Assembly (NCBI GenBank): GCA_030704615.1
Contig: CM060734.1
Coordinates: 10,292,001-10,356,000, forward strand
Source: Takakia lepidozioides
Lineage: Eukaryota > Plantae > Bryophyta
Reading direction: 5' to 3'
Length of the DNA stretch: 64,000 nucleotides
Below, in pieces: positions 13,773 through 57,213 of this stretch. The position numbers and the translations under genes are program-made. How positions within the stretch are numbered: position 1 is the stretch's first letter; each line of letters opens with the position of its first letter. Below the pieces are notes generated by a model. The model saw only the letters and a list, made by a program, of their open reading frames with translations. It made no database searches and had not been told where the DNA came from.

Positions 13773-13933
13773 TGTTGGCTCCTCCCTATAAGGGAGAGAC
13801 CACGCATTGGTGCCAGAAATGAGTAAGATCATGATATACCTCCACTAGATAATACCTACATGAAGCAGATAATCCTCCCCCACTTAGATATTAACTTGAA
13901 TGTACCTTGATTGGATAAGACCCACATGTAAAC

Positions 13934-30347: not shown

Positions 30348-30351
30348 GTCG

Positions 30352-30922
30352 GACAGCTTTTACTCACCCATCCCTTCGCTATTCGAGGTGGAAACTCCAA
30401 GATAGAAGAGTTGGATATCTCTAAGCACTCAGCCCGCTCAGAACAATCAGTCATGACACTAGTGAATCATGGTTGTGCTTCCTATTTGTATTCATTCTTG
30501 CCTTCATGTTATCAATTTACCCTTTCGTGTATACTGAAGCATCAGATTGCTTCAGTATCTACTAAGTTCCAGTTAATCATGCATTCATTCCACAGCTTCA
30601 CTCATGTCTCTCTACACAGTGTGATTGTATCGAATAAGTATCAGATTATGATTTATCAGGTATCAGGCCAATGCCATGGTGACTCTAATCTGCCCTACAG
30701 TATCACTACAGCTTTGCATGTACAAGCATCTACTGTTCATCTCTCCTCCTTCTCCATGCTCTCGTTCTTGTTCTCCGCCTGATCTCCTCTCATGCATGAC
30801 CAAGAACCACTCCCCGTGAAGTGCCCCCTTCCTGTTGCCGCTCTCCTTAATCTACCCCCAAGCTGTTCTAACCACCCAACTAACTAACCGTCACCCTGAA
30901 GTAACACGTTCCCCTTGCAGAT
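30352..30922 (-). repeat. Diverged inverted paralog of 41714-42230 (leader and first codons of the ParB-like gene)
   Basis: The reverse complement encodes MTDCSERAECLEISNSSILEFPPRIAKGWVSKS, matching the start of ORF 42128; upstream sequence is also homologous. Confidence 0.9.
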
Positions 30923-30971
30923 GTCGTTCCCACACAGTCGTTCCCTGTCAATGATAATTGTTCCCCATGTA

Positions 30972-31200
30972 CTGTGACAGGTTGTGTCAAGCTGTGCCGA
31001 GCTGTGACTGGCTGTGTCGGGCTGTGACTGGCTGTGACGGGCTGTGTCGGGCTGTGTCGGGCTGTGCAAAGCGGCTGTGACTGGCTATGACGGGCTGTGT
31101 GAAGCTGTGCGAAACTGTGGCGGGCTGTGACTGGCTGTGTGAAGCTGTGTGGAGCTGTGTCGGGCTGTGTACAGCTGTGCAAAGCTGTGGCGGGCTGTGT
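30972..31200. repeat. 10-bp minisatellite (GGCTGTGWCG-like), ~22 copies
   Basis: GCTGTG recurs with a ~10-bp period. Confidence 0.95.
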
Positions 31201-34200
31201 AACCCCCCTAAAGCCTGCTACTGCCACCCCTAAGGCTCCTGTTGGTCTCAGTCTGCGCAAAAATTAAGGGTACCCCACAGAACCCGTAAAAGTGTCTAAG
31301 TCCTAAGCAGCCCTCTAATATTACCCCTCTCCCTCTCAAAAAGCCGTGTCCTCACGGTTTACTGTTTGGGATTAGCAAACCTTTGTGAGCGAGCACCCTT
31401 CTGACGGTGAGAGTCTCGTGAAGAACTCTGTGTGCGAGCCCGAGTCCTGTCACTGGCGGATGGAGATGATTGAGCACTACCTGGAAATGTTTGACCCTCC
31501 TTTGGCTGTTAACGAGGTAACCTCTCAGGCATAGGAGATCCCCGTCGCTCTGCCATCTGAAGTGCATAGTCCTCTGCCATGTCAAAAGAGTCCGCGGAAG
31601 AAACAGTAGTATCAGAATCCTCGTCCCCCCTTAGGTGTTTTAACGGCCGAACTTTAAGTGGAATCCTGTGTGGCATACAATGTGGTCCCACCATGTCTGG
31701 AAGTTTAAACTGTACAACTTGTTGTAAGCGTTTGCAAGCAAAATTAGTGAACGTCCTGAACTCCTTATCTGTATAGGTAAGAGGTGTGTCAATGACTTTG
31801 GAACAGTGTAAGTATTTCCAGGCTTAATGTCCCTTAAAGAAAATATCCTCAGGGCCAAATTTCTGTGTTGTCAAGCACCAACTTCATTCACAAATGGAAA
31901 ATGGCTCCAAGGCCTACAAAGCTAGGACTCATACCTTTCTCAAACACTTTCCTAAACTAGGGAGCTTCAAGCTCCACTCCCTAGGACCTAGGCCTCCTCA
32001 AGCAAAACTAACAAAGCAACTATGCAACAAGCAAGAGGAAACTAAACAAATGAACTAGGTGAAGAACAAGGAGGGTCTTGCTCTTCTTTTATACCGTTTT
32101 TGGGCCTAAAAAACTAATGAGAAATAACATTAAACTATAATAACCTTGAAGGGTTTATAGTTTAGAATCCATAGATTGAAATAAACTAATATTTTGGATG
32201 GAAAACCTTAGAGGCAAATGATATATGCCATTTCATCCATCCTTTGGATAGCTAGTTGGCGCTAGCTGTCATTTTTCATCCATCCAGCCTCCATGGCGAA
32301 TTTGTCATTTTCATCCCATGGATGAAGTAGAAAATCAAATAATCGGCTTCCGTCAGTGCCGTTGGCTTGATAATTTGATGCCGTCACTAATCTCTTCTAT
32401 AAATCACCAAACTTGGTGAAAAATTATAATTAGACATCCCATAGATGCTCACAAATTCTCAGGGTGATCGGGGATGAAAGGATATTTCAATCGTCGGTTT
32501 TCGCAAATTTGCCATAAAGGAAGTTGCTCCTTCCTGGAAAATAAATTACCGATGGTGCCCCAGGGGGTCTTTAGCCCTGCCACTGGGTCACAGATCTTTT
32601 GGAGTCCTCTCCTACTAGCTTTGAATTGCTGGGGAGTCCAAACTTCACCGTGAGGCTACTAACCCGCCGTTTGCTCCGATGCAGCATTTTGCTTTGTTGC
32701 GATATCTCATTGTTGTACAAGTTTGTTTCTTCCAATTGCCAAACCTCCTCGCTGTGTGTTTCTACTAGATTTGAAAGACGGGAGAACAGAGAGATCGCAA
32801 TCATGTATTCAAACAGCCGCCCTGTATGTCCGAACATGTTCACCTTGCCGTTACCAGTATCAATTTGGCAGCCTATTCTACTGTCGATGCAGCTTCATAT
32901 GGTCATCTTGACGCCAGAGCTCCTCCCATGGTTGTCGCAGACTCTATCTAAGTTCTTAAGTGCTGTAGTAATGATTCCCAATTAACTAACAAACTGTCAC
33001 GTTTTGGCAGTACAATCCCCAAACTGCCTGTCTTAAGATCAAAAACGATCTGAAAATGAAAATGTACCAATATATGTATCTACATATATTGGTGACCAAT
33101 GGGGAACACTCGACCCGAGTGTAAGAGAATCCAGAATCTTTGGTTCATACAATCTTCCTACTAGGGTATCCCTGATATCCCTTGGAGTCAACGACTCACT
33201 TAAAAGATGAAGAATAATTTCCTTTGGGCTCTTCCTCTTCGGAGAGAGTTCAAGTCTCCCGGGAATGAGGAGGGCAAATAAAAGCAAAAGACTGAGGCAA
33301 GCCCTCACCAAGTTGTCCTCGTATGTTGATTCACTGGTGCTATTTAACATCAGTTATGTACACTTTCAAAGCCACCCGACTCGCCCTCTTTGGAGAGAGT
33401 TGGAGTTCCCAGATAAAAAATACTTCAAAACCGCCATTTTCCCCACCGGACTGGGTTTGAATCCCCTAGATAATGAAAGAAGATATGCGCGGTGCCATTT
33501 TGATGATCCTAATCTAAAATAGTCTTGGAAGGACTTGGGTTCTACGCTACTTGGTCATGGCTTACAGGGACCTCTCATGGATTTGCAAAGTTCTTGCGAA
33601 AGACTCGATGTGAAACTAAGACCTCGACTCGAATCCAGAAGGGCCAAATGCTCTTGAATAGGATGCTTCTGGGGGTTCTAATCACTACCTCCCGTAACAA
33701 CAGAAAAGATTGGATACCCGAGGACCCTCCTCATGAAACAGGCGGACCATTTCTATCCTAAGATTCTAACTACTTTCATGGCTCGCAGGGACCTTTCATG
33801 GATTTCGCAGAGCTCATGGTGAGATTCTTGACTTTGGAAACGATTGGATACCTTCTGCACCTCAGAGGACCATACTCTGGACTAACTCACCATTCATACC
33901 TATCTACTGAAAAGAGGTCACAGGCCCTTCTGGGTTTTCCTATGCCTGACATCCTCCACTCATGTGAGGGAAGCAGCAACCGCTTCTCTACAAGCTCTCC
34001 TTTTTACCCCTCACTGCCTTGCTAACTTTTCTCTCCCTGGGAGAACACTGCAGCGGGGTGGAGAAGACAAAACACAGGTCGCACCATTCTACTGGTCCAT
34101 GCCTGACAGAGATGCGCCACTTGCTCGCCACTTGGTCGTCATCTCGAAAAGGTTTGAAGGGTTAGAATCCCCGTGCGGGAAGTCGCAGTGCTCCATGTAG

Positions 34201-35594
34201 GGAGCATCGGTATACTGCAGAATATTCCACCAGGCTTACCATAGTGGTCCTGGTCATTGTTTCTTCTTGGTTGGGTTTGCACCTGATGCACCCTCACCTG
34301 TCTTGGTTCCCTTGTTGCTGTCTTTCTGTTGTAATAACAATTCTCAGTAGAATGGTTATCCATTTTACAGATTGTACAGTGTTTCTCCTTCATGTGGCAT
34401 TCAGCCGTGGTATGGCCTTCATTTTGGCACTTTGCACACAACAACCCTTCCCTCCATGTGTTGCAGCCTCTATGGCATACTTTTTTCAAGATTTCTTCCA
34501 ATCTTTTTTTATAGTTGTCCCTCTTCAACTTTTCCTTCTTCTTGCTCTTCTTCCTCATCTGACTCATCCTCAGAGTCATCATCATCCTTTTTATCCTTCC
34601 TGAGCAATTTCCTTTGCTCAATTCTGTTGGCTGTTTCAAATGCCTCCTCCACTGTATTATGGGGTAACATATCCACTTTCTATTTTAACTCAGGTCTCAG
34701 TCCACTTACAAACCAAGTCTTTTGTAAACCTCCTGGTGGCACATCAGGCAACTTCTTGACCATTAACTCCATCTTCTCTAGATATTCTTCAACTGTTTCA
34801 TGCTTCTTTTGTCTCAACTGTTGTAGACTACCGTACACTTCATCCTCAGTTTTGCTTGTCCTGAACCTGTTTCGGAATGTTGTACTAAGGCCATTCAGGT
34901 TTTAAATGATTATCAGGAAACCTTGCATACCACTCACTTGCTTTCTTGATAAGTGAACAAGAAAACAATCTCAGTTTGGCATCATCACCATTCTCATTGT
35001 TCACTATATACATGTGCTCAAATTGGTTGATGTGTACATCCGGATCCTCTTTTCCTGCATATATTGGAAAAGGTGGTTTTGCCCGTGTTGGAGGTACTGC
35101 CATCTGTGGCCCTACTCCCTGCCCTGTGGCAGGTGCTAGTCTTCCTGTAGGTGCTGGTCCCTGAGGACCTGTTGTGGTTGTGGTTGAACTCCCACCAGGT
35201 GTTGGCCCCTGAGCACTTCCTGCTACTGCCCCCCCTGTATTTGCAGTACCCCCAGCTCCAGTTGCACTACTTCCCATACTCCCTGTCCCCCCAGAGCCGG
35301 ATCCAAGCTGCCCGCCTGATCTCCCTGAGCCGACACCTGTGTTGGCTTGTGATCCAAGTGCTCCACTTGATCCAGGTCCAACAGGTTGGAATATCCTGGT
35401 TGTAGTCTCAACCGCAATTGTTGCATCTACGTCTTCATACTCTTCGTCTTCCAAGTTTTTCTCTCTGTTTTCATCTTCCAAGTTCTTATCAGCTTGGATT
35501 TCTTCTTCCTCACTCATGTAACTCAATTGAGTGGTGTTGGAGAGTCTGAACTCTCCGTTGGCTCTACCTCATCTTCCTCTCCTTCCTTGGCTTG
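31198..35594 (-). mobile_element. Degenerate LTR retroelement D with gag and accessory ORFs but no recognisable pol; 5' part lost at copy C
   Basis: Gag (PPFPIYAGKEDPDVHINQFE..ASEWY; knuckles CAKCQNEGHTTAEC and CTICKMDNHSTENC). PPT GAGAGGGAGAGGGG (31324-31337, minus) precedes a short putative LTR at 31320-31198 ending GGGGTTACA. Confidence 0.65.
34139..35594 (-). pseudogene. Retrotransposon gag with two CCHC zinc knuckles
   Basis: ORFs 34885-35526 and 34139-34639 are linked by frameshifted capsid sequence. Confidence 0.85.
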
Positions 35595-38500
35595 TGTTGT
35601 GCACCTCACTTCGGTAAGCTCCCCTTCAAGTCATAGTTACTCGCTTTGATGCGCGTGCCTAACTCCCAACTTGGCCGCCGGGCCAATTCGGAGCTTCGGC
35701 TGCTCATCGGGACATAACGGTCCCCCTTTACTCTTCCAAGGAACCCTCCACCAATTTGGGCCTAGTGGAAATTCCCCTTGGTAGATGGCAGTCCGGAATA
35801 GCTCCCCACTCCTTGGTCGCTTTCCGGCTCGCTCGCTTTACTCACTAGTTTTGGTCACACCAACGGGCTTGCACCGTTCTCGGGGTTACTACTCCCTATA
35901 TATACTTCTGTGACTGTCCGCGAGGGTCTCACAAACAACCATGCCATTTTATGGCGAACCATCACAAAGACCCTCGATTCCCGGTGATGAGTCGCGGTGA
36001 GTCTTGGCCCACCCACCACGGCCCCATTGGACCGTGGTGAGTCCCAAGACTCCCCACGACTCCCACCACCAGGTCTCCGCCCCATGGTGAGTCCTATGCC
36101 ACCCCCACTAAGTCCCATTAAGCTACCACCACCCCTTGTGGAGCCACCCCCACTGCAACTCGGTGTGCGGGGCTCCACCTAGTGAGCGCCTCCGCCTCCT
36201 TGAGTGCCTTGGGCACTCAAGGGTGCTTCAGCCCCCCGTACCTATTGCTGCCACCGCCCCCACCACAGGGGCAGCCCCTCTGCGTCCCGACCCCCTGCCT
36301 CAAGGCAAAGGGCCGCGACACACACCCCTACCAACAGGGAGTCGATGTCCTCATCGACTTGTCCATTTTGTAGAAACGAACATCCAAGTTGTGGCGTCCC
36401 ACATCACTAGATAACCTTGAACCAACCGTGCGCCCCAATCACTACAATTGGGTCCGCCTTGGAATGCTGGCCTGAGGTACGGGAACACGCCGAAGCCGCA
36501 CTATGACTTCGTCCCGAGGCTACACGATTATAGTACGTGAACGGAAGCACGTAGCTTCCGCGTTAGCCCGCACTACAAGCAACCCCTCGGTAGCGCAGTT
36601 ATAGTACGCGCACGCGCCAGGTGCGCACTAGCATGTGAACTCCCAAAGAAGGCGCAAGTTTCCTTGCCCCTTGGGTGGGAGTCACCCGATTTTGGCACTG
36701 CGCAAACACACGATTAACCCAATTTACCTCTCCCACTTTTGTAAGCTAGCATGCATTCTACACACTAGCCAACCATACCATGCATCACCATTCCAAACAA
36801 AATAGGACGCACAACATTTGGAAACCATTTCATTTATAACAAAATTTGTACAATACAAGTTTTTGCAATCGGATTCCTGAGCTAGCTAAGCCGGGCTAAG
36901 CATGCATTTCCTCCCCCACGCTCCAAGGTTGATGTCCCCATCAACGCTTCTTCCGCTTTTGAGGTCGCCCTTCGAAAGCTGCAACCGCCTCAGATGCGTT
37001 CCCCATTTCTGAGGCACGCACCCAAGAAGCCTCCACATGATGATAGCCCTTCCATTTCACGAGATACTCCGTTTCTCGATTCTTGAACCTCCTCAACTTA
37101 AGCACTGTCTCCCTCTCGTACTTAGGTTCATTTTCATGATCCAACAGCATAGGTGGCGGACGCAACACTTGATGCCGATTCGGGCGCGCTTCATCTTTGA
37201 AGTAAGGCTTCAAAAGGGAGATGTGGAATACCGGATGCACCTTGTTGTTTGCCGACAGCTCCAATTCATACACATCCTCATTCATAACCTTCCGGATGCA
37301 AAAGGGTCCCGCATACGGAGGTACGAACTTCGGACTCACTTCCGAAGGTAGTCAAAAATTCTTGATGTTCAACCAGATCTCCGTGCCTTAAACTTAACCT
37401 CCCTCCACTTCCGATTCACCTGCCATTCATACCATTTCCTAGCTTTGGCAATGTTGTATTTTGCGAGCTTCAACAAACGCTCGCGTTCTTCCAGCACTGC
37501 CGCTGCTGCCGGTTCCTCAATGTCTTGGGCGGCCGAATTTGTCGGCACCAGAGGTGCTTTTCCATAAACCAATACGAAGGGGGAAACTCCCATTGCGGAA
37601 TGTTTTGTGTTATTATAACAGAACTCTGCCGCATCCAAGTGCTCCACCCAGTCCGATTGGTCTGCCGACACGTAATTCCGCAAGATCTGCTTCACCATGG
37701 AATTCACCCTTTCCGTTTGGCCGTCCGTCGTAGGTCGGAAGGCGGTGTTCATCTTGAGCCTCATCCCCATCTTCTTCCAAAGTGCCCTCCAAAATTTACT
37801 CGTAAACTTTGGATCGCGGTCCGAGACAATATCCTTCGGGAGTCCATGATGCTTGAAATGTGGGCGAAGTAAAGTCGTCCCATCTCCTGTACCGTTGCCG
37901 TCTCCTTGGTGGGGATGAAATGGCCCATTTTACTGAACCTATCCACCACCACCATGATTGCATCGAATCCTTTCGACAACGGCATAGCAGTCATGAAATC
38001 CATCGAGACACTTTCCCAAGACCCCTCTGGAATCGGCAAGGGTTGTAACAGCCCCGCTTGTTTTTTGTACTCGCTCCGGTTTTGTTGGCATGTGGTGCAT
38101 GTCTTGACATACGCCTCGGCCTTCTCCCTCAGTTTGGGCCAAAAATACTCTTTCTTCAAGAGTGCCGCGGTGTGCTTGGCTCCGCCGTGGCCCGCAAGCG
38201 GACCATCATGACATTCTCTTAAGAGACTATCTCTGATCCCTCCCTTCGGCACGTAGAGACGCTTTTGCTTGTACCGGAGCAGTCCATTTTGCAAGTGGAA
38301 CTGCGATTTAACCCCCATCCTCAAGTCCCGCATCACGGACTTCGCCATCTCATCCTTCCGGTAAGCCTTCCGGATCTTCCTTTGGAGCGCCGTTTCGCCC
38401 CTGTACACCATCATGAGCTGCTGCTTTCTACTTAAAGCATCGGCCACCACATTGTCCCGTCCTGGTTTGTACTGGATATCCACGTCGAACAGTGCCAAAG

Positions 38501-41500
38501 TGTCTTGCCACCTAATTTGTTTTGGGGACAACTTAGGCTGTGTGGCAAAATACTTCACCGTGACATTGTCCGTGAACACCTTTACCGGGTTGGAACCAAT
38601 ATAGTGGCGCCAAAGCTCAAGGCAATGCACCACCGCCTTCATTTCTTTCTCGTGTGTGGGCCACCGTCACTCCACTTCATTCAGTTTCTTACTTTCGTAA
38701 GCCACTGGACGTCCATCATGCATCAGTACACCCCCAATTGCGAAGTCCGACGCATCTGTATGGATCTCAAATGGACGGTCGAACTCCGGAATTTTGAGGA
38801 CTGAAGCTTCCGCCATCCGCTGCTTCAACTCGGCAAAAGCATGGCCACAAAAGGTGTTCCCTACCCAGACTTTGGATTTACACAGGAGGTTTGACAGCCG
38901 CCCCGTGATCTTGGCGAAATTTCAAACATACTTCCAGTAATAGGAGGCGAGTCCTAGGAAGGATCGCACTCCCGGGACCGAAGTCGGAGGCTCCCAGTCC
39001 AAAATTGCCCTCACCTTTCTGTCATCCATTTTAATCCCATCCTGTGTAATCAGATGTTCCAGGAACTCCACTTTTGTGACCCCGAATTCGCACTTTGAAG
39101 CTTTGGCATACAACTTCCCTTCCCGCAATTTCTGGAACACCCTTTTTAGGTGCTCCAGGTGCTCTTCCTTTGTTTTCGAGTACACCAAGATGTCGTCGAT
39201 GTACACGATCACAAAGTCATCCAACCATTCCTAGAAAAGACTGTTCATTAGTGTGCTAAAGGTCGCGGGTGCGTTGGTGAGCCCAAAAGGCATCACCAAG
39301 AACTCATATGAACCATACCTTGTCTTGCACGCGGTCTTCTCCTCGTCTCCTTCTGCCACTCGAATTTGATGGTAGCCGGAGCGCAAATCGATCCAGCTGA
39401 AATACTTTGCTCTTGCCAATCGATCAAAGAGGTTGTCGATCCTTGGCAAAGGGTACCGGTTTTTTATAGTCACCTTATTTAGAGCCCTGTAATCGACACA
39501 CATCTGTAGCGCCATATCATTCTTGTCTGCGAATAGCACCGAGGCTCCGTAAGGTGACTTACTCGGCCGGATGTACCCCTTTGACATTAGATCCTTGAGC
39601 TGAGTCTTCAGCTCGACCAACTCTCTGTGGCTCAACCGGTAGGGCGCCTTGGCAGACGGCTCCAATCCCGGTATCACCTCAATCTTGTGGTCAACTCCTC
39701 TTCGCGGTGGCAAGCCCCTTGGTAAATCCTCCGGCATCACATCCTGGTATTTCTCCAAAATCGCCTTGATCCAATCTGGGCTCGGCTCCCCATTGCCTTC
39801 TCCCTTCACTTGTATTACATAAAGCAAAAACTGGGGCTCGTGTAACTCCTCCACGGCCCACTCCCTTGCTGACAGAAGGTTTATTCGCCCTCCCACGGGG
39901 TTGGGCGTTTCCGACACTCGTAAAACTTCGCCACCATTCCCACACGGTAGCGTAACTACTCTCTTGCGGCCATCTATGATCTGCTCAAAAAGGTCATCCC
40001 CAAAATGAGATCCACTCCATCGATCTCGCAAATGGTGAAGTTATCACGTCCCTCCCAACTCCCGAGCTGAAGAGGAACATCGAACGCCAATCTCGTCGCC
40101 AATTGTGGTTCTCCTTTAGCAGAATGTACCTCAATAGAGGCCCCCACATCACTTGTCGGGAGTCCCAGCTTCTGTGCCGTTGCCGGTGTCATGAAGGATT
40201 GCGACGCTCTTGTGTCCACCAACAACGACACGTTAGTTTCGGAGATTATCCCACACACAAACATTAACTGACTCCCTTTACGCAAGGCGCCAGTTTCCTG
40301 ATACAACTCACAAGAGTAGTTGCCTACCTTGCAAGTCTTGGCAACCACCGCCTCCACCAAGCGGCTGATGGAAGCTTCGGACAACTCCATGGTTGCCCGA
40401 GTCATATTCAATTGTTGGGGATTCGTACACTTCTTGGCCATGTGCCCGGACTCCCCACAATTGAAGCACACTCCATCGAAGGTCACCTTTTGTCTGCCAT
40501 AAGGCGTCGCACCTGATTTTCCTTTCAGAGCACCGGGTGTCGTGTTGGCGTGTGAAGGCCCTCCCCTCAATTTCCACGTGCCATTGTCGCCGCGTGACCT
40601 ATCCCACTTCTTTTCCGGTCGAAAGGAGTCACCCTCCCGCCGGGTCTTCTTGTGGTTCAGCTCCGTACGGCCTTGTCTTTTGCCCCTAGGGACATCCGAG
40701 AAACATTCAGCCCTCTTAATTGCCTCGTTCAAAGTCTTAGGTGGCTTCTCCTCCAATTTTCGTCTGGCCCATAGGGCCAGTCCCGCCACAAAGTTGAAGA
40801 CCATTTCTGGTTTCGTCATGTCTGCGACTTCGAGCAACAGCACATTGAAAGCCTGGACATATCCCCGAATGTCGTCTGTTTGCTTCAAATTCCTCATCTT
40901 GTCCCGGGCAAGCCAGGACGCGTTGAGGGGCACAAACTGCCTCTTCATCAATTCCTTGAACCCACTCCAGTTCAAGGTTTCCGGGCTTGGACCTCGGTCG
41001 TGAAGGAGTTTTTGCCACCATTGTTGAGCATAGCCCCTCAAATAGGTGGGAGCCACTTCCACCCGATCCTCGTCACTCAACTTGGCCGCCCGGAAGTACT
41101 GCTCTAGCTCCAAGAGCCAGGTGTTGAGTGCCTTCCGATTTTGGATGCCCTTGAAGGTGCCGGGTTCCTTAGGCTTCACCTTAAATTTTTCCTTAGTGGA
41201 AGTGCCATTAGCCGCCTTCAACACGTCTTTCAATGTCCCGCCAAACTGCGCCAACAACCCTTTCCAAAAGACTGCTGGCATGGGAGGCATGTGTTGGTCT
41301 GTCGGAGCTCTCAGAGATTCCTTGGGCTCCGACTCCTCAGATTCCTCCCGTTCTTGAGTGGCCTTATTTTCAAAAGTATGCATCGCTTCCTCAAATGGCC
41401 ACTTCGGTGACACGTCGCCCCCATCGGGCTCACCAGGATCATCATCTTTCGGGCCGTTCCGCTTTTGCTTTGGCTTGCCCGACCCCATGGTGAGGCCGAT

Positions 41501-41713
41501 CCCAAGGACGATTGCATACAGAACTCTAAGCTCTGATACCAAGTGTCGCGTACCTCACTTCGGTAAGCTCCCCTTCAAGTCATAGTTATTCGCTTTGATG
41601 CGCGCGCCTAACTCCCAATCTGGCCGTCGGGCCAACTCGGAGCTTCGGCTGCTCATCGGGACATAACGATCCCCCTTTACTCTTCCAAGGAACCCTCCAC
41701 CAATTTGGGCCTA
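35595..41713 (-). mobile_element. Chromovirus copy C (older; 5' LTR broken at 41713; ~290-bp deletion in the 3' UTR)
   Basis: 3' LTR 35595-36320; disrupted gag-pol 36941-41488; PBS 41530-41541; partial 5' LTR 41544-41713. Confidence 0.95.
36941..41488 (-). pseudogene. Copy C gag-pol, multiple stops and frameshifts
   Basis: Colinear with copy A; protease DTG mutated to DTR; YIDD retained. Confidence 0.95.
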
Positions 41714-42127
41714 ATCTGCAGAGGGAACATGCATTCTGTCTTGGATGACAGTTAGTTAGTTAGGCGGTTAGAACAGCTTGCAGGTAGAATAGGCAGAGTA
41801 GCGACATGGAGGGGGTCACTTCTTGGAGATCAAATTCGACGAGATGATGGTGGATTCATGCAAGCTGTAGAGATGCACTCTAGAGCAGATTAGAGACACC
41901 ATGGCTTCGGCCTGATACTTGATAGATATTAATCTGATACATATTTCATACTCACACTGTGTAGAGAGACCTGAGGGAAGCTGTGGAATGAATGCTTGGG
42001 TAGATGGAACATGGAAGATTGCAGAAGCAATCTGATACTTAATCATAGACAGTAAGATAACTTGCTAACATGAATGCGAGAAGGAATACAAATAGGAAGC
42101 ACCCCCATGATACACTAGTTATAGGTC

Positions 42128-44770
42128 ATGACTGATTGTTCTGAGCAAGCTGAGTGCTTAGAGATTTCCAACTCTTCTATCTTGGAGTTTCCACCTCGGA
42201 TAGCTAAGGGATGGGTGAGTAAAAGCCGCTCGACAATGAACCACACAATGAGCTCTATTTCGCATTTGCTGAGGAATGGGGCTCCGCCAAAAATACCATT
42301 ATGCAGGATGAAGCCCCTCCCGGCTGTGCAGATGGCTGAGCGCCCTGGCATCAACAAGCTGAAGTTGTATTTTGAGGCGGACAGGTATAACGATGCTCTT
42401 GCATCACTTTTGCTTTCTACCAATGACGACGGTGGACAGAGCCAAGAAATCCAACAGGCAAATCGGGATGCATGGTCTCTACATTGGCAGGCAGCGGATG
42501 CGGCATTTGAGGAAGATATAAAGAACACGGAGTGGGAATTTCTCTCTAACAAATGGCTGCACGTCTACGACGGGAATCACAGGTGGTACGCCTGGATGGA
42601 GGTCATATCCGAGCAGCATCCAGACGAAGCGAGCTGGCACTACCGGGTGAACGCAAAGATTATGGATGTGAAGAGTTCGGATTTGGGGCTCATACGACGT
42701 GCAATGAATTGTATGAATGTGTGAGTTTCTATCCCCATTTCTGCTCACATGAGCATGGGTGTCATGTGAGCATAAGAGCTTAGCATTTTGGGGATCTCCA
42801 TTAGAAAGGGTTGTAGGTCAAGCATAAGCAGTCGTTGTGGGTGACTGAGGCAGTGGGTGTAATTTAGCAAGTTGCAGCGGTGTAGCTTCATTGACTGATT
42901 TTTGGATGTGATCGTCTTCCCTAGCAGTTATAGTCGGAGTCGACTATAACTGCGGGGGTTGACTTCTTCCGAACCTCCACTACATTCCAATTTATTAAGT
43001 AGAAGTGCAGGGTGAGAGGGACTCAGAAGTAGTGTCAGGTGAGAGGGAGTTGTGAGAGTGGAAGGTGACTATTCTTCTTATGAGGCCTGCCTTATTACAA
43101 CAGTTATGGTCTGCACCGACTATGGCAGTTTAGGTGCAGTGACTGTGGTACCATTCAGCCCACAATAAACCCAAAAACGATGCTAAGGTTGAAGGTAGGT
43201 AAAGATGAGACAAATTTCAATAAGGTCCATGGACACTTAAAGGCCATGTACTATGCATTTTGTAGCGTTACAGATCGCGGAAATGTGTCAAACAAACTTC
43301 CACACAAGCTATTCTACTTCCAGAAGTGCGCAACTACACCTGTTGAGGAGTATCAATCAGCTCTTCCACCGGACGTCTACGAGAAGTGCTTGAACAAGCG
43401 GGATGGGAACTGGATGACTATGCCGCGGGACGCCCTCATAGAATATATGGGTCAGGAGGGATTCCATAGAATTCAAACACCTTCTTGGATGCCCATGCCC
43501 ACCTGCCTGCCACCGCTAAGAACACCGACCTCATCTGGAAGAAACTTGCTAGCGATTTCCAGGTGCACAGGACGAAGTGGTACACCAAAATTGCCAAGTA
43601 TTCTTCCATTTGCGATCTTGCTCTGGGAACTGGCTTTCTTTTTTAGATAACCACGCATTACCACTTGCCGTGAATCAGAAGCCGGAAATGACTCTAGAGA
43701 AGTTACAGATGTTGGCCACGAGTGAGATCAGCCCTGCAGAGAAGGTTTCATGATTAAAGCTGTGGAATTCTGACTCCACAACCCGCAAAAAAGGGAAATT
43801 TCCCCATGCTCCCACAGATGTGGTGTTTGGCTTGTGGTGTGACAAAATGACATGGTGGTTCCAGGTAAGAACCATCCAATATTCGCGGTGGCTTCATGTT
43901 TGAGTTATTGTTGCAACCCTGCATTCTAAAAATTGTCGTGGACTCGCAGCAAAAAAAGGAAGCAGAGCGGCAGTTGGCCATGCTGGTTCAGAAAGAGTTC
44001 CTGCAGCTCCCAACCCCAGAAGAGGCCCCACGCTCCATCAAGTACTGGAAGGAGTTGTTTTGGTGCGAGATGAAGGATGGGCCTGGCCGAAGTTGGCCGA
44101 TTACCGAGCAGCCTGGTGGATCTTTACCAGCTCGGAGGCTCGTATATAGGTACATTATTATCATTGCAATTCCATGCATGCTTGGCATATGTCATACAGC
44201 AAATGGCGCACAGATACGTAGCGGGCATACTCATATCTGTAGCAAATGCACGTTATAGTCGGCAGACATTATAATAGTCGGCAGACTTGGTCTTTAGACA
44301 AATGGTCGGCGCCGACTACTGGGCTCAGACATGGTAGTCATAGTCGGCAACGACTATAGGGTGGGGCTGGGGTAGCCATGCATTATAGTCGGCAACGACT
44401 TTCGGAAAGGGCCCCGTTGGCAGCCAGGCGAACCCACAGTTAGGAGTCGTAGTCGGCACCGATTATGACACAGGCTTTGGCCCATTGGGTGTCATAGTCG
44501 CTGTCGACTATTGCATATGGGCAGGGACTACGGCCCGGGCATTTGAAAGTTTATTCTATGTCATTGCCATCAGGCTAAATGTCCATCCTGATTTCAAGTT
44601 TTGGTGCACTGGTACAAGTACATAAATTTTTATTTGCTCGCCAACAAGCATATCAGGTGTATGCCAGCCAGTGTCACACAGTGGGCCAACCTCCGGTTCG
44701 ACTGCACAATGTACAACGGCAGGCAGTTAGGCGAGTACGTGAAAGTCACACATCTGCCCTGCTTATGGTG
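42128..44770 (+). pseudogene. Multi-exon gene for a ParB/sulfiredoxin-like domain protein (VYDGNHRWYAW), probably transposon-borne, degenerate after exon 1
   Basis: 198-codon exon 1; GT-AG intron 42721-43265 splices in frame (GT|C GTT ACA GAT); exon 2 has frameshifts and stops to ~44149; further coding-like sequence to ~44770. Confidence 0.6.
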
Positions 44771-44921
44771 GCTCCACCTAGTGAGCGCCTCCGCCTCCTT
44801 GAGTGCCTTGGGCACTCAAGGGTGCTTCAGCCCCCCGTACCTATCGCTGCCACTGCCCCCACCACAAGGGCAGCCCCTCATGTGTCCCGACCCCCTGCCC
44901 TCAAGGCAAAGGGCCGCGACA
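44771..44921 (-). repeat. Terminal 150-bp fragment of the chromovirus LTR
   Basis: GCTCCACCTAGTGAGC...GGGCCGCGACA matches the family LTR end. Confidence 0.95.
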
Positions 44922-45329
44922 GGCCGGCACCTGTCCGTCACATTTCAACCCCCGGACGGAAATTCGGCACCGAATATCCAGTAGGGGACGCCAGGACGAA
45001 GTCGCCTCGGGCGGAGAGGCCGGCACCTGTCAACGATGGTTGACCAGCGCGAACTCACCACCAAATAGTCTCCAGAATGACTTCTAATGCAAGCCTGGTA
45101 GCCAAAAGGTTAATTTAAAAAAAAAAATTGCTTATAGGGTTGCGCATGAGAGGGTTGGGACTTAGTTTTTCTTTTTCTTTTTCTCCTGTGCGGTTTCTTA
45201 GTATTGAGCTGTTGTGTTGGGTCATGGAACGCAATGATCGCTGGATAGGGGCGTGGGATGGAGGCTTTGCAGACCTATTCTTGAGTTACTGATGCAGGAA
45301 GGGGCGAAGCGCAACCTGCACCGTAACCG

Positions 45330-48300
45330 CAATGGGCTCTTGGCTCCTGTTAGTACCATGATTTGGTATTCTTCCTGATGTTTACAAGGATATTGGGAGA
45401 GACAGCTTGGTCTTAGCTGTCCGTGTTTCAATCGATGCCCGCTCAGCTGCACCGTGGTGGTTCTCACAGACCAATACGACATTACCTGACTACAGACAGA
45501 AGCAACACACACAAGAGGTCCTATTGTGTTCATGGTCAGTCAAATCCTCCATGGGTCATGACACAAGGTCGAGGACAATGTGGTGAGGGCACCTTCTTCT
45601 TCGACCTATTTCAGCCTGTTTTGACCTCTCATCAGACTCGGCCCTGAATTTCTTCATGATGGTGGGACAACCGCAATCACAAGGTGTGGATTTTTCTTAA
45701 TGTACCATGTAAAGTTTTAAGTTAGTCCATCCTGCAAATGTGGGCTCTTGGCTCTTGTTATGATTTGGTATTCTTCCTAATGTTTACAAGGTTCTGGTTC
45801 TTGGGAGAGTCAGCTTGGTCTTAGCAAGCTACGTTTCAATCTCTGCCAGTTCAGTTGTGGAAATCGCAGCAGCGGCACAATTGATAAAATCTGGCACTGC
45901 TACTCAAGGCACCTTCTTCAACACATTTCACCCTGTTTTCTCCTCTTATCAGAATCGGCCCTAAATTGGTGAGGGCACCTTTTCTTCAACATGTTTCAGT
46001 CTGTTTTTCCCTCTCATCATTTGGGTTGGGGTGTTTGCTGGAAGAGGGCCGGATTTCAAGCACAAGATTACCTATGATTCCCTGTGGATCCATTGCTACA
46101 AGAAACCTGCATGGGTAGATGGTGAACTGGAAGCCGCAGCAGCAGCGGCACAATTGATAAATTAGGCACTGCTAATGAAGGCAACCTTCTTCAACACATT
46201 TCACCCTATTTTCCCCTCTTATCAAAATCGGCCCTAAATTTTCAGGTTGAATTTCTGTAAGTTACTGGTTGAGTGAACCTTTGATAGTTTGCAGTGTGTG
46301 CAAGCCTGGCAGCTCTGGAGAAGGGCAAAGAGGTCCATGGCAACATTGTCAGAGCTGCAATTATACCACATGTCATTCTTAACAATACCCTCGTGGACAT
46401 GTATGAAGGGAGTGTTTGACAGTATGCCTGAACAAGATGTGGGTGTCGGTGCGATGATTGCAGGATATGCATAGTTACGGCGTGGATGGAGGGTTTTGAG
46501 AACTATGACTAAATGATGTGCGAAAGGGAGAAACCCAACCACTTTACATTTGTTTGTGTTTGCAATGTGTGTGTAAGCCTGGGAGCTCTAGGAAATGGGA
46601 AAGAGGTTCATTGGTGACATCATCAAAGCTGAATTTGTACCAGATGTCATTATGAACACTGCCCTGGTGGACATGTATGCCAAATGTGGGTGCAGCAAGC
46701 CTGATGCAAAGGGGGAGTTCGACAATATGGCTGAACAAGATGTGGTGTTTTGGAATGCCATGATTGCAAGGTATGTGCAGCATGGGTATGGGATTAAGGC
46801 TTTGGAAACCTAAGAGCAAATGATGTGGGAAGGGATGAAGGCAGACCGGGTCATGTTCATTTGTGTTTATAATATGCATATGCGAGCTTAGCAGCCCTAG
46901 GAATGGTCAAAGAGGTTCATGGTGACATTATCAAAGTTGGAATTGTACCAAATGTCATTATGAACATTCCCCTGGTCTATGCTCACCAAGTGTTCAATAG
47001 AATCCCTCAACGATCTTTGATCATGTGGAATATAATGTTGGCAGGATTTACCAAGCATGGGTTGGTAGGAATGCTTTGGAGACCTATGAGCAAATGTTGC
47101 GCGAAGGGTTGAAGCCCAACCACATCACATTTGTTTGTGTTTGCAATGCGTGTGCAAGCCTGGGAGCGTTCTGTTGTAGTGAATACTTTTCTGACCCCAG
47201 TCAACGGTGGGACAATCAAGGCAAAAAGGTGAATTCCTGTTGGATTACAGAGAGTAGAAGATGCAATTGAGCATAGGAACTAGTGTGATAAGTTGAGTTG
47301 GGTGTTTCCTAGAACAATTCGAGGCTTTCATTATCAGCTACTTGGAGCAAGGCAAGGGTAAATGCATGATTTTGGCAGAGGCATGGATAGCTGAAGGAGC
47401 AGGGATAGAGTGTGGGTCCAGATTCATCGAAGAGGGCCGGACTTCAAGCTCCTATGATTCCCTGTGGATCAATAGGTACTAGCAACCTGCATGGATAGAT
47501 GGTCAATTGGAAGCTGCAGCAGTAACGGTGGAATTGATAAATCAGGCACTACTAATGAAGGCACCTTCTTCAACACATTTCACCCTATTTTTCCTTCTTA
47601 TCAGAATTGACCCTAAGTTTCCATGTTGAATTCTGCATGCTAGCTGGTTGAGTGAACCTTTGATAGTTTGGAGTGACTTGACATGATACTGCCAATGTGA
47701 CAACAGGAAAGCATCCAGAAACAGGTAACAGAGATGAGGAGAAGCTGTGGAATGAATACTTTTCTTACCCAGTCAATGGTGGGACAATCCAGGCAAGAAG
47801 GTGAATGTTTGTCTGATTATAGAGAGTAACAGATGCAATTGAGCATAAGAACTAGTGTGATAAGTTGAGTTGGGTGTTTGCTAGAATAAATCTAGGCTGT
47901 CATCGTCAGCTGCTAGCAGCAAGGCAAGGATGTATGCATGATTTATGCATAGGCATGGATAGCTGAAGGAGCAGGGATAGAGTGTGGGTCCAGATTCATC
48001 CAAGAGGGCCAGAAAGAGGTCCATGGTGACATCGTCAAAGCTGGAATTGTACCGGATGTCATTCTGAACACTATCCTGGTGACATGTATGCCAAATGTGG
48101 GTGCATTAAGGATGCGAAGGGAGTTTTCAACACTATGGCTGAACGAGATGTGGTGTCATGGAACACGATGCTTGCAGGGTATGCACAGCAGGCCGGACGT
48201 GGTATGGAGGCTTTGGAGACCTATGATCAAATGATGGGGGAAGGGGTGAAGCCTGACCACATCACATTTTTGTGCATCTGCGATGCATGTGCAAGCCTGA

Positions 48301-48412
48301 CAGCTCTGGAAAGGGCACAGAAGTCCATGGCAACATTGTCAGAGCTAGAATTTTACCAAATGTCATTCTGAACAATACCCTTGTGGACATGTACATGCAA
48401 AATGTGGGTGCA
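45330..48412 (+). pseudogene. Mosaic array of PLS-class PPR fragments (46290-47170, 48010-48412) interleaved with duplicated non-coding blocks
   Basis: Repeated EVHGDI..PDVIMNTALVDMYAKCG..FDNMAEQDVVFWNAMI..GY..HG..ALET..KPNHITFVCV units. Duplicated blocks: 45330-45650/45740-46020, 46040-46290/47425-47670 and 47175-47440/47750-48010. Confidence 0.85.
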
Positions 48413-52098: not shown

Positions 52099-53433
52099 CT
52101 TGTATTTAAGTAAAAAGATAAGCTCATGCGGCCACACTACAGATGGGGGTTAGCCCAAAGGGGAGGCTATGATGTAAAAGCTTCTGCTGTTGTTGCCAAA
52201 GGCCGGTAGTCGTAACTATTATGTCAAGGATATGTCATGAAAGATTGCTTTCTTCTCAAGTTCAATAGATACTTTTTTTACAGGTATTGCATCTATTGAG
52301 GATGTCGAGAACTTGATGGGGCGGTGGGACAGAGCGCTGCAAGCCTGCAATGGGCCAGAAACACATTGGGAAAGCCCAACTACAGAATGCAAGAAATGAT
52401 GTTACTACATGTGCGCCGGATGCTACTTCGTGCGAGGCCATCGCTCCTAGAAGTGGGCTTCCTCCATGGTTTTCTTACTATTGTGGAGACTCTCACAGGG
52501 AAGTTCCAACCGGAGGAAAATGCAGCTGATCAGTAGGACCCTTAGCATCCTGCAGTTCTACTGCTGGGCTGACACATAGGCCAAGCTCAGACTGTGAGCT
52601 CTAGATCTGTTCCCAGTCCAGCCGTTATGCAAAGTGTCCATTGCAAGTCTTTGATCCACTTCCCCTTTTTCTCTGTGACATTATCTCCTCTTGTATGGAG
52701 CGTACACCACCAGAGTCGATATCACTATGTTTGCCACAAGTTTCCACCACTTATGGACTAGGTAACCGGCGAGAGGGCACGGATTACCGCATGTAGCTGA
52801 GGCGCGGTAACGTCGAAGCTGCATGGGATAACCCGTGGCCTTGAGCCGGTTACCGGACATAACCGGGTTTTCGAAACATCGAGAGTGACAGTCATCCATG
52901 CGCAACCAGCTTATCTTTTGAGGGTCGCATGTTACCACCTATAACCAGCGTCCAGTGAGCCAGTCATTAGTAGACACGTACTCGAGATGCTTTGAAAAAC
53001 CGGTTATGTATATTGCATCTCACAGCAGCAATAAAAATTCCATATTGGCCACCTTGAACACCGACCCATTTCAAATTAGACCAGTAAATTGCAATTTCTG
53101 TTTTTAGTCCGGCAAACCTGATAGGAAAACACTTCAAAGTTCCATGTACAGTAATAGTCTTCAACCAAAAAAAAATAGTTGTCGTTTCTTTTCCTCAAAA
53201 GTTCAACCTATAATTATCTGCCACAAAGCACGTCTATGAAACCGTATCAATTACCTGCATGAAGGTATTTTGTGCAGTCTGTGCTTTCCCGAAACCTAAT
53301 CCGCTCCCCAGTAGCCACCTCGGAGGTTTGAAGGTTATGAGGGGTTGTTGCAGGCTGCACGAGAGCGACATCTCCCCAACATGTGAGGGAGATATGATGC
53401 TGCAACAGGGAAAAGAGTGAAGAAGAGGGAGCG

Positions 53434-56400
53434 ATGGATGGGTTGAAGAAGTTGGAGTACCTGTCCTTGGTGTCCAAAGTGTGCACAGAGTTAGACGCAC
53501 ATATAGGATGCTCGGACAAAACCCTTGCTGAGTACATCATAGATCTGGCCCAGAGGAGTGATTCTGTGGATTCCTTTGGAACGTCGTTAAAGAAAAATGG
53601 AGCTGAGATGCCAGAGTACTTTGTCAAGACTTTGCTCACGATTATCCATGCAATTCTACCGCCAAAGAGTAAGGCGGAGAGAGAGAAGCTGAAGGGTTTG
53701 GGGGGCGAGAAGGAGGAAAAGAAATCCGCGTTTCCGGGGCTTTCGGTGCCTGATGACAAGCACAGAGTGAAGGAGTTAGAGCATGAGCTGCAAAGGGATG
53801 GCGATGTGGGTGGGACTTGGCTTTCTGGGAGGGATGGCCGCCGGGATCCAGATCGAGAGACCGGACGAGAGAAGTCCACCAAAGACAGAGACGGTGAAAG
53901 AGAAAGTGATCGAAGACGGGATTCTAAGAAGGAGGATGGTATTCGGGACCGAGATGTGCGCAGGGAACGGGAGAAAGATAAAGATCGTGATAGAGACAGA
54001 GATATAGATGAGATTAGGGTTAGGGATAGAGAGTCAGGAAGGGAGAGTGATCGCAAGCGGGACGGAAGAAGTCACAGAAGTGATGAGCGTGATGGTGGAC
54101 GGCATAGAGATGGTAAGGCTAGGGGCTATGACAGAGATAGTGAGAAAGGTAATGGCAGAGTAAGGGATAGAGAGGAAGGGGGCGGCAGACCATCCAGAGA
54201 TGGTGAAAAGTGGAGAGAGAAGGATCGGTATGATCGTGATTTTGGGGGCAGAGACAGGCACGAAGATAATGAAGACAGGCAAAGAGATGTCTCCCCCAAG
54301 ACAGTTGGGCATCCCAGAGGTGGCCCGTTGGCTGAGCCTGAACTGTTTGGGATATATAGAGGTCGTGTTTCTCGCATCATGGACTTTGGTTGCTTTGTGC
54401 AACTGATTGGCGTGAAAGATCGGAAAGAGGGTCTCGTCCATGTGTCCCAGATTGCTTCCAGGAGGGTCGTGAATGCGAAAGAAGCGGTGGAGAGAGATCA
54501 GGAGTGTTGGGTGAAGGTCATTTCTCTCGCTGGCCAGAAAATGAGTCTGTCAATGCGCGATGTTGATCAAAAGACCGGGCGAGATCTTCTACCTATGAAG
54601 AGGAACGCCACAGAGGAGGAGAATCTCCATGCAAACCCTTCCAGCTCCAGCCTGGCTCGCATGACGAGGAAGGGACTGTCGGGCATTACCATAGTAGAAG
54701 AAGATGAGAACACATCGACCAGAAGACCCATGAAGAGGATGAGTTCTCCTGAGCGATGGGAGGCCAAACAGCTGATTGCATCAGGGGTCTTAGATGTGCG
54801 TGACTATCCCATGTATGATGAAGATGGTGGGGGCATGCTGTATCAGGAGGAGGGTGCTGAGGAAGAGCTTGAGATTGAGCTGAACGAGGATGAACCTGCA
54901 TTTCTCAGGGGCCAGACACGTTACTCTATTGATGTTTCTCCTGTAAAGATTGTGAAGAATCCGGATGGGTCCTTACAGAGAGCAGCAATGACACAATCAG
55001 CTCTTGCAAAAGAGAGGAGAGAATTGCGGGAACAGCAGCAGAGGACCATGCTGGATTCAATTCCCAAGGATTTGAACAGGCCATGGGAGGATCCCATGCC
55101 TGAGACTGGAGAGAGGCACCTTGCTCAGGAGCTTCGGGGAGTGGGCCTGTCAGCCTACGACATGCCAGAGTGGAAAAAGGATGCTTTTGGCAAAGCCCCG
55201 ACATTTGGACAGCGTTCGAAGCTCTCGATCCAGGAGCAGCGGCAGAGCTTGCCTATCTATAAACTGAAGAATGAACTCATCAAGGCTGTGAATGACAACC
55301 AAGTGTTGGTCGTGATTGGAGAGACGGGTTCGGGAAAGACCACTCAAATGACTCAGTATTTGGCAGAGGCCGGATACACGACGCGGGGAAAGATAGGATG
55401 TACACAGCCTCGGCGAGTGGCAGCTATGTCGGTCGCCAAGAGAGTTGCTGAAGAGTTTGGTTGTCGACTTGGGGAGGAGGTGGGGTACGCCATCCGGTTT
55501 GAGGATTGCACAGGGCCAGAGACTGTCATCAAGTACATGACAGATGGCATGTTGTTGCGAGAGATTTTAATTGATGAACAGCTTGTTTCTTATTCAGTGA
55601 TTATGCTTGATGAGGCCCATGAGCGTACCATCCATACTGATGTTTTGTTTGGTCTCCTGAAAGGACTGGTAAAGCGCCGGCCTGACTTGAGGCTGATTGT
55701 CACTTCAGCAACTCTCGATGCTGAAAAATTTTCAGGGTATTTTTTCGATTGCCCTATTTTTACGATACCTGGACGAACTTATCCCGTCGAGATTTTGTAC
55801 ACAAAGCAGCCTGAGACAGACTATCTGGATGCTGCTCTTATTACAGTGATGCAGATCCATTTGACGGAGCCCGAAGGGGATGTTCTCCTTTTCTTGACAG
55901 GGCAAGAGGAGATAGATACTGCTTGCCAGATTTTGTACGAGAGAATGAAGGGTTTGGGTCCTAATGTGCCTGAACTCATCATCCTGCCAGTCTACAGTGC
56001 TCTTCCAAGTGAAATGCAGACTCGGATTTTTGAACCTCCCCCTCTTGGAACAAGAAAGGTGGTGGTCGCCACCAATATTGCAGAGGCTTCTCTTACTATT
56101 GATGGGATTTACTACGTGGTCGATCCAGGGTTCGCAAAGCAGAATGTGTATAACCCAAAGCTGGGTCTAGACTCCTTGGTCATTACTCCCATTTCACAAG
56201 CTTCAGCACGACAAAGGGCGGGACGGGCAGGTCGAACAGGGCCTGGCAAATGCTACCGTCTTTATACAGAGAGTGCATACCGAAATGAAATGCTGCCTAC
56301 AACAGTGCCAGAAATTCAAAGAATTAACTTGGGTTTGACCACGTTGACGATGAAAGCTATGGGGATCAATGACCTTCTCTCATTTGATTTCATGGACCCT

Positions 56401-57213
56401 CCTCCACCACAGGCACTCATCTCAGCAATGGAACAGCTTTATAGTCTTGGAGCACTCGATGAGGAAGGGCTTCTCACAAAATTGGGAAGAAAGATGGCAG
56501 AATTTCCGTTGGAGCCCCCCCTCTCCAAGATGTTGCTGGCCAGTGTGGACTTGGGTTGCAGTGATGAGATTCTGACTATTATCTCTATGTTGCAAGCCCA
56601 GAACATCTTCTATCGCCCCCGTGAGAAACAAGCTCAGGCTGACCAGAAGAGAGCTAAGTTTTTCCAGCCGGAAGGGGACCATTTGACGCTGTTGGCGGTG
56701 TATGAGGCTTGGAAAGCCAAAAACTTCTCAGGACCATGGTGTTTTGAGAATTTTGTGCAGTCACGGTCGTTGAGGAGGGCTCAGGATGTGCGCAAGCAGC
56801 TGCTCACCATCATGGACAGGTATAAGCTGGATGTTGTGGGTGCAGGCAAGAACTTTACTCGTATAAGGAAGGCCATAGCTGCAGGCTTCTTTTTCCATGC
56901 AGCCCGTAAGGATCCACAAGAAGGCTATCGCACGCTGGTGGAGAATCAACCAGTCTATATTCACCCCAGCAGCGCTCTGTTCCAGCGGCAGCCCGACTGG
57001 GTCATCTACCATGAGTTGGTTATGACCACTAAGGAGTATATGCGTGAGGTCACTTTAATGGACCCCAAGTGGTTGGTTGAGTTGGCACCTCGGTTCTTCA
57101 AGGTGGCGGACCCCACAAAATTGAGTAAGAGGAAACGACAGGAGCGCATTGAACCTTTGTATGATCGATACCATGAGCCCAACTCTTGGCGTCTTAGCAA
57201 ACGGCGTGGTTAA
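53434..57213 (+). CDS. PRP22: Pre-mRNA-splicing DEAH-box RNA helicase Prp22/DHX8, intronless CDS
   Basis: 1259-aa ORF: PWI-like N-terminus, RD/RS-rich region, S1 domain, [24 protein letters not shown], and the conserved C-terminus [20 protein letters not shown]. Confidence 0.98.

Follow-up and report, generated by a model that had tools for sequence, protein, structure and literature searches.

A spliced ParB/Srx-fold gene of a land plant whose relatives carry a methyltransferase-like domain, likely an accessory gene of a giant Mutator-like transposon

Transposons of brown, red and green algae are known to carry passenger genes that combine a ParB domain with a DNA modifier, and the role of these genes in self-marking is putative. 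The Ectocarpus element Sola1-1_Ec32 (21.5 kb) carries, according to the accessible text of its description, the gene for a 1104-aa protein with a ParB-like and an N4C/N6A methyltransferase domain, which is transcribed opposite to the transposase gene (PMC12477816). For this accessory protein, binding to and modification of its own element have been suggested, and the same text reports similar proteins in green and red algae, with reference to Iyer 2011 for the green algae (PMC12477816). Plavaka elements of 17-19 kb in Bostrychia and further red algae carry PAG2 and PAG3 with a ParB-like domain and a PF01555 methylase, as described in the accessible part of that report; there, two genes are involved, one for a fusion of ParB with a 2OG oxygenase and the other for a fusion of the methylase with SET, the ParB gene adjoins inverted-repeat arrays, the accessory copies are mostly decayed, and the cassette is also found on Mutator, Zisupton and other elements (10.1101/2025.02.11.637652). 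Eukaryotic writers of 4mC that are encoded by host genes have been described as well, namely MpDN4MT1 of Marchantia (10.1101/2021.02.12.428880) and the rotifer N4CMT (PMC8885841), and the accessible texts state that both keep SPPY.

The gene studied here was found in a 64-kb stretch of Takakia lepidozioides DNA, hereafter the window. A preliminary description had regarded it as probable cargo of an unclassified transposon, and cargo of this type turns out to have been described already, in the texts accessible to us, from algal transposons (PMC12477816; 10.1101/2025.02.11.637652). We estimate a probability of about two in three that it is a multicopy, spliced ParB-methyltransferase gene which likely serves as an accessory gene of a giant Mutator-like transposon, and whose product would bind or mark the DNA of its own element. 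The relatives of the window gene resemble Sola1-1_Ec32 in joining ParB and an amino-methyltransferase in one protein (1207 aa in Riccia) and in lying opposite to a transposase-like gene. They differ from it in belonging to land plants, in having a GCM-like/DDE/SWIM (MULE-like) gene instead of Sola and in an altered catalytic motif; a putative kinship with this class is drawn from the architecture and the described layout. With Plavaka PAG2 and PAG3 they share the ParB and methylase domains, repeat arrays next to the ParB gene and the decay of most copies, but in the plants both domains form one gene. Like MpDN4MT1 and N4CMT, they would represent a prokaryotic-type amino-methyltransferase in a eukaryote, but one that is joined to ParB and lacks SPPY; the word 'ParB' does not occur in the accessible text of either paper on these enzymes.

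The window gene and its predicted fold

The open reading frame at 42125-42724 on the forward strand contains every exon 1 motif quoted in the preliminary description. Within it, HVYDGNHRWYAW has the form G-x-x-R, which in ParB/Srx proteins is the nucleotide-binding motif that follows a hydrophobic strand. The remnant of exon 1 spans 42237..42720 (+), and its ParB/Srx-fold domain (approximately 42290-42718, with DGNHR) matched the family profile with an E-value of 1e-48. When an alignment of 39 sequences was used as input, this exon was modelled with a pLDDT of 90.5 and a pTM of 0.84, compared to a pLDDT of only 40.6 upon single-sequence folding. The matches at Foldseek ranks 1-10 were all Noc, ParB or sulfiredoxin (probability 0.89-1.00, with weak E-values of 0.03-0.1), and among the 13 of 48,161 chains with Z≥2 in VIA-align, 12 belong to the ParB/Srx superfamily. 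The top eight of these had Z-scores of 5.5-7.5, the first unrelated chain had a Z-score of 2.3, and the best match (92 aligned, rmsd 2.9) reached a Z-score of 7.5, which is under 8. Both comparisons thus agree with the earlier assignment to ParB/Srx-like proteins. Pfam gave no match for six window ORFs, and sequence searches of the PDB returned nothing meaningful. The plant domain shares its fold with the bacterial ParB/Noc/KorB CTPases and sulfiredoxin, but shows 8-20% identity to them and has a helical insertion and introns. On the basis of the model, we regard the reading frame as part of a real spliced gene with a predicted ParB/Srx fold. All 82 xDGxHR matches in 156 relative proteins read DGNHR, and this uniformity suggests a working nucleotide site; in alignment A2, the invariance of the motif stems from the selection of its members.

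The in-frame GT-AG intron noted previously was recovered at 42721..43265 (+), in phase 2. Its donor is GTGAGT at 42721 and its acceptor ends at 43265; splicing onto 43266 gives a stop-free join, whereas each of three other acceptors tested yields a stop. This position is common to the relatives, since a GT donor was present at the identical phase-2 position in 38 of the 40 relatives with a recognisable exon end among the matches listed. Exon 2 (43266..43864, +) encodes a helical middle region that was matched by tblastn from the relatives with E-values down to 1e-14. In three-frame translation, exon 2 of the window copy shows two frame changes and in-frame stops, and read contigs place indels of other copies' exon 2 at 43474, 43661 and 43735/43738. 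A likely exon 3 (43950..44149, +) is a candidate based on splice signals (AG/GT bounds) for which the profile search gave no match; a contig of run X7 (presumed RNA) that aligns to 44040-44151 and ends there is a weak hint for its presence. It is followed by an intron at 44150..44656 (+) and by a remnant of exon 4 at 44657..44769 (+), which is cut off, the exon profile of the relatives matching 44592-44981 with an E-value of 6e-4. In the layout of L057 and L028, about 0.8 kb of DNA lies between exon 4 and the start of the methyltransferase domain, and the window gene ends at an LTR fragment at 44770, ahead of any methylase.

The gene proper covers 42237-44769 (2,533 bp). The window copy is a pseudogene, truncated at its 5' and 3' ends, and the true 5' end of exon 1 is lost from it. 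It would make no product because LTR retrotransposon sequence cuts both sides. Its scarce coverage in runs X6 and X7 (presumed RNA) has no bearing on expression either way. No methylase or transposase was detected in the 64-kb window by tblastn from the relatives or by profiles, and the same is true for the relatives' neighbour genes (a transposase-like gene and a third gene).

Palindromic motifs are found in two of the introns, as ATAGTCG/CGACTAT in intron 1 and as a cluster of ATAGTCGG-N(2-5)-CGACTAT repeats at 44150..44656. ATAGTCG or its complement, a motif that was picked after being seen in the window, has 10 occurrences in the gene (2,533 bp), every one in an intron, compared to 3 in the remaining 61,467 bp of the window. 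A blind hairpin count revealed an upstream excess in only 11 of 47 loci among the matches listed, and none in the window gene. Tandem arrays with units of 107, 64 and 75 bp lie directly upstream of the gene in L203, L029 and L070, respectively, and the palindromes in these arrays differ among the three loci.

Upstream of the gene lies LTR-B (41714..42236, +), the 3' part of a very high-copy LTR that ends with CGACA and is located outside the ParB gene. The end of LTR-B supplies the first 36 codons of the exon 1 reading frame in the preliminary description. We identify 41714-42236 as the 3' part of an LTR because the summed contig depth drops from approximately 7-8e5 to approximately 1e3 at 42235/42236, because 62 read contigs diverge from the window at this same point, and because another copy of LTR-B (30352..31200, -, about 850 bp including a minisatellite) follows, in its own orientation, a purine tract and an internal region that resembles gag (34107-35593); the junction sequences point the same way. 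The X1 consensus of the diverging ends begins with TTTGGCGACC, which we take to resemble a primer-binding site.

The region 30352-30922 had been proposed as a second, inverted copy of the gene next to a minisatellite. The inverted similarity is indeed present (78-87% identity between 30340-30922 and 41714-42244, with 87% for 41714..42236 against 30336-30720 reversed), as is the minisatellite at 30972-31200. A second gene copy at this position was nevertheless ruled out, as the region is LTR-B and the sole match of the ParB-domain profile in the window is at 42125-42721 (E-value of 1e-48, compared to 0.5 for the runner-up).

On the other side, the gene is truncated by LTR-A (44770..44921, -), the first 152 bp of a Ty3/gypsy LTR with 96-98% identity to 36171-36320 and other copies, and from 44770 on the contig depth climbs to approximately 1e6. 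The Ty3/gypsy element A (35594..41713, -) has a 5' LTR that is reduced to its last 171 bp (41543-41713). The segment 41714-44769, which comprises the LTR-B piece and the gene fragment (3,056 bp), sits between collinear parts of one gypsy LTR, about 405 bp of which are missing at the insert. The flanks of this insert showed no match to each other that would represent a target duplication.

The window as a whole is transposon-rich plant DNA; besides several copies of Ty3/gypsy elements, it includes a stretch that resembles a Helitron and two long host genes, each with a single ORF. The stretch at 8900-13800 contains Helitron-like Rep/helicase fragments and is AT-rich (about 32% GC against a background of 45-55%). 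The element at 30352-35593 is a very high-copy, possibly non-autonomous LTR element in which a gag-like region but no pol was noticed; its 850-bp LTR contains a 10-bp minisatellite, and a lower-copy insert is located at about 31970-34100. We take the intronless genes at 53398-57213 and 61631-62782 to encode a PRP22-like DEAH helicase and an ALIS/CDC50-like protein, respectively. Degenerate repeats at 45200-48400, presumably resembling PPR motifs, have a high coverage by contigs of runs X6 and X7 (presumed RNA).

Copies in the window species and relatives in other plants

Several read contigs were 85-90% identical to the gene, that is 10-15% different. In run X2, a contig with a depth of 264 covers 42236-42727 and continues with other sequence, which indicates that other copies lack the LTR-B junction; the exact-match contig at this position has a depth of 29. 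Judged by the read contigs, there are roughly ten or more diverged copies in the window species, a rough figure since contig depth does not equal copy number. The gene is therefore multicopy, as had been claimed, although the evidence offered at the time (30352-30922) was LTR sequence.

A motif scan of metagenome contigs yielded at least 120 loci, of which at least 55 are non-redundant; an earlier, first metagenome scan had found no relative. Tblastn on the first 80 loci separated 66 relatives from 14 chance matches, and 40 short loci were excluded from the neighbourhood work. The copies in these contigs are spliced plant DNA, perhaps from mosses; among the matches listed, they lie dispersed, have identities of 64-90% and are for the most part decayed. 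A profile of the ParB exon matched 1028 protein clusters at E≤0.001, and the ten long matches that were looked up belong to Riccia sorocarpa (six) and to two Adiantum species (four). Word-based protein searches returned one relative, and none among the longer proteins. The survey thus places the relatives in a liverwort, in ferns and in spliced plant DNA within metagenome contigs; in Riccia, four or more scaffolds carry at least nine of the genes. In a tree of 30 ParB exons, the window copy groups with L068, L011/L120 and L203 with a support of 0.86, and the deeper nodes are unsupported.

No close relative was found in prokaryotic genomes, where the sole match was L203 (GTDB contig CADCWO010000058.1, 552-4155), an intact-looking ParB-methyltransferase gene inside a cyanobacterial MAG. 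Since L203 has GT-AG introns at the positions typical of the family, it is likely a plant contamination of the MAG assembly. A prokaryotic ancestry of the gene, as previously suggested, would follow from the type of domain only.

The Adiantum capillus-veneris protein KAI5065344.1 (P0151) has a ParB-like domain at 213-353 and a NIF/FCP1-like phosphatase domain at 955-1129 (Pfam E-value of 2e-12). As it ends in the latter domain, either the C-terminus varies or this protein is mis-annotated, and it may represent another fusion or a merged gene model.

The methyltransferase-like C-terminus of the relatives

In the intact copies L057, L028 and L203, the ParB domain is followed by a helical region and a methyltransferase-like domain, which in spliced L057 and L028 reads open and has common intron positions. 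The Riccia sorocarpa protein KAL3677308.1 (1207 aa) contains the ParB domain at 174-321 and a methyltransferase-like domain at 965-1169. A beta-methyltransferase profile of 14 phage methylases, whose seed was chosen from weak matches to the L057 exon, scored 30.6 bits for L057 and 24.6 bits for L028, whereas the best of the controls (1000 shuffles and 2 reversals) scored 5.7 bits. With hhalign, the match to this profile had a probability of 95.7% over 191 columns. Pfam N6_N4_Mtase matched single exons with E-values of 0.004 and 0.02, which is below the curated Pfam cut-off, and PADLOC likewise pointed to a methyltransferase. L057, L028 and KAL3677308.1 combine a profile match with the motif order of the beta class (PF01555), IV...X-I. 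Of the 22 non-redundant loci among the matches listed that extend 3.4 kb or more downstream, 15 contained methyltransferase parts, as counted with profiles that, like those for the transposase parts, were built from the same loci. Judged by their sequences, the intact relatives join the ParB domain to what is predicted to be a beta-class N4C/N6A-methyltransferase-like domain. A missing C-terminal methylase had been anticipated for the window gene, and such a domain does exist in the relatives, but with an altered catalytic motif.

The weak best matches of the methyltransferase exon are phage methyltransferases, and phage ParB-terminase loci hold pairs of ParB and beta-methyltransferase genes (PMC4738411). 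This would fit a gene that belongs not to a cut-and-paste transposon but to an integrated element of a giant-virus-like or Polinton-like type. We consider such an origin highly improbable, because several scans found no relatives in viral contigs, the genes are intron-rich, and no capsid or polymerase was noticed in the recurring neighbour clusters that were viewed.

The canonical catalytic motif (D/N/S)PP(Y/F/W) is absent from the domain and reads DYPE, DIPE, DVPE, DLPT, DMPS or DVPF instead. Motif IV thus has the form D-x-P-E/T/S/F compared to DPPY, the first Pro being lost and the aromatic residue mostly lost. With this replacement, the domain may bind rather than methylate DNA. Motif I (FxGxG) is intact in Riccia (DFAGGWG), and altered in L057 (DCHAMTG), L028 (DWNASTG) and L203 (DITASTG). 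In the extreme case, the gene would reside on a giant DNA transposon with both domains catalytically dead, and its product would act in DNA binding or as a silencing decoy, with neither an NTP clamp cycle nor methyl transfer. Besides the motif IV variants, this is favoured by the requirement of rotifer N4CMT for the catalytic Ser and Tyr of SPPY, as stated in the accessible text (PMC8885841), and by the description of DIRS1-borne methyltransferases as inactive (PMC4738411). It seems unlikely, however, given that the motif IV Asp and second Pro are kept in liverwort, fern and metagenome copies, that motif I is intact in Riccia, and that the uniform DGNHR suggests a working nucleotide site.

Neighbouring genes and the proposed carrier

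Among the matches listed, 19 non-redundant loci extend 5 kb or more upstream; 10 of these have transposase-like parts upstream of the gene and on the opposite strand, and one further locus has them in inverted orientation. The remaining 8 loci had no transposase part in the neighbourhood count, although one of them, L079, has such a part by other analyses. The motifs follow the order of a GCM-like KCLGH finger, MFD, FMxDGAQAN, CFFHW, NLxExxH and a SWIM-like CxC..CKH. From these motifs, read by eye in decayed copies, and from their order, we presume that the gene is MULE-like. According to the accessible text, MULE transposases consist of a WRKY-GCM1 finger, a DDE core and a SWIM domain (PMC1702500). 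Pfam and NCBIfam gave no match for the transposase-like gene. A third gene, located downstream on the opposite strand and therefore convergent, was present in 7 of the 16 non-redundant loci among the matches listed whose downstream flank reaches 6 kb or more. It was noted in L058 (4600-8200 downstream of the motif), in L076 (4800-8600) and also in L003, L024, L062, L073 and L079, and it had no family match in Pfam. In L062 and L073, the three genes together span about 17-20 kb. In the relatives, the ParB-methyltransferase gene is thus linked to a divergent gene with a putative DDE motif as well as GCM-like and SWIM motifs.

Mutator/MULE elements have terminal inverted repeats and a target duplication of about 9 bp. 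A search of 11 loci, each at most 20 kb long, found neither; these are decayed copies whose ends may lie beyond the flanks. The proposal that the gene is transposon cargo accordingly gains from the DDE-type gene linked to it in the relatives, and not from termini, target duplications or a transposase in the window. The missing termini, the position of the window fragment between two collinear pieces of one gypsy LTR, and the intact, intron-conserved copies L057, L028 and L203 could also reflect a family of host genes in seedless plants whose members were duplicated or passively captured (Pack-type; here trapped in a gypsy LTR), in which case the link to a transposase would be one lineage's capture. 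We regard this as quite unlikely. Most copies are decayed and at least 55 loci are non-redundant; Riccia has its genes on several scaffolds; the depth-264 contig of run X2 shows copies that lack the LTR junction; and the divergent layout equals that of Ectocarpus Sola1-1 in the accessible description (PMC12477816).

Our preferred reading remains that of an accessory gene carried by Mutator-like DNA transposons of giant size (about 17-20 kb) that form a family in seedless land plants. The ParB domain would bind a nucleoside triphosphate, and the protein may load at the palindromic repeats of its own element, like ParB at parS. In a next step, the element's DNA would be marked or bound through the methyltransferase-like domain, and this may tune the silencing or transposition of the element. 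It is doubtful whether this extends to a widespread, undescribed giant Mutator-like family of mosses, liverworts and ferns with a working ParB-type NTP clamp, family-specific parS-like palindromes and a methyltransferase of new motif that writes a 4mC/6mA anti-silencing mark, and to Starship DUF3723 as the same class of cargo.

DUF3723 (PF12520) is a conserved cargo of fungal Starships according to the accessible text (10.1101/2021.12.13.472469). Among the language-model clusters nearest to the ParB exon (ESM Atlas), it is annotated on 31% and 47% of the members with a score of 0.95, and other nearest clusters are unnamed and eukaryotic, with Cnidaria commonest. This hints that DUF3723 may hold a ParB-like domain and that animal relatives may exist. 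As none of 39 family members had a Pfam match to PF12520, the likeness to this other giant-element cargo, as far as the Starship text describes it, is one of the language model without a Pfam match and serves as a lead only.

Searches of the openly accessible literature yielded no report of ParB-methyltransferase transposon genes in land plants; relatives from plants may already be listed in the TE tables for Ectocarpus and Bostrychia or in Repbase. What appears to be new is therefore a land-plant variant of the algal class of ParB-methyltransferase accessory genes, the class itself having been described already. Land plants thus likely have self-marking transposon passenger genes of a type that earlier descriptions place in algae. 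In addition to MpDN4MT1, the family is a possible source of plant 4mC and 6mA, and it offers a lead on the uncharacterised Starship cargo DUF3723. With the intact Riccia copies and the candidate palindromes, the notion that a transposon binds and marks itself becomes testable in transformable bryophytes.
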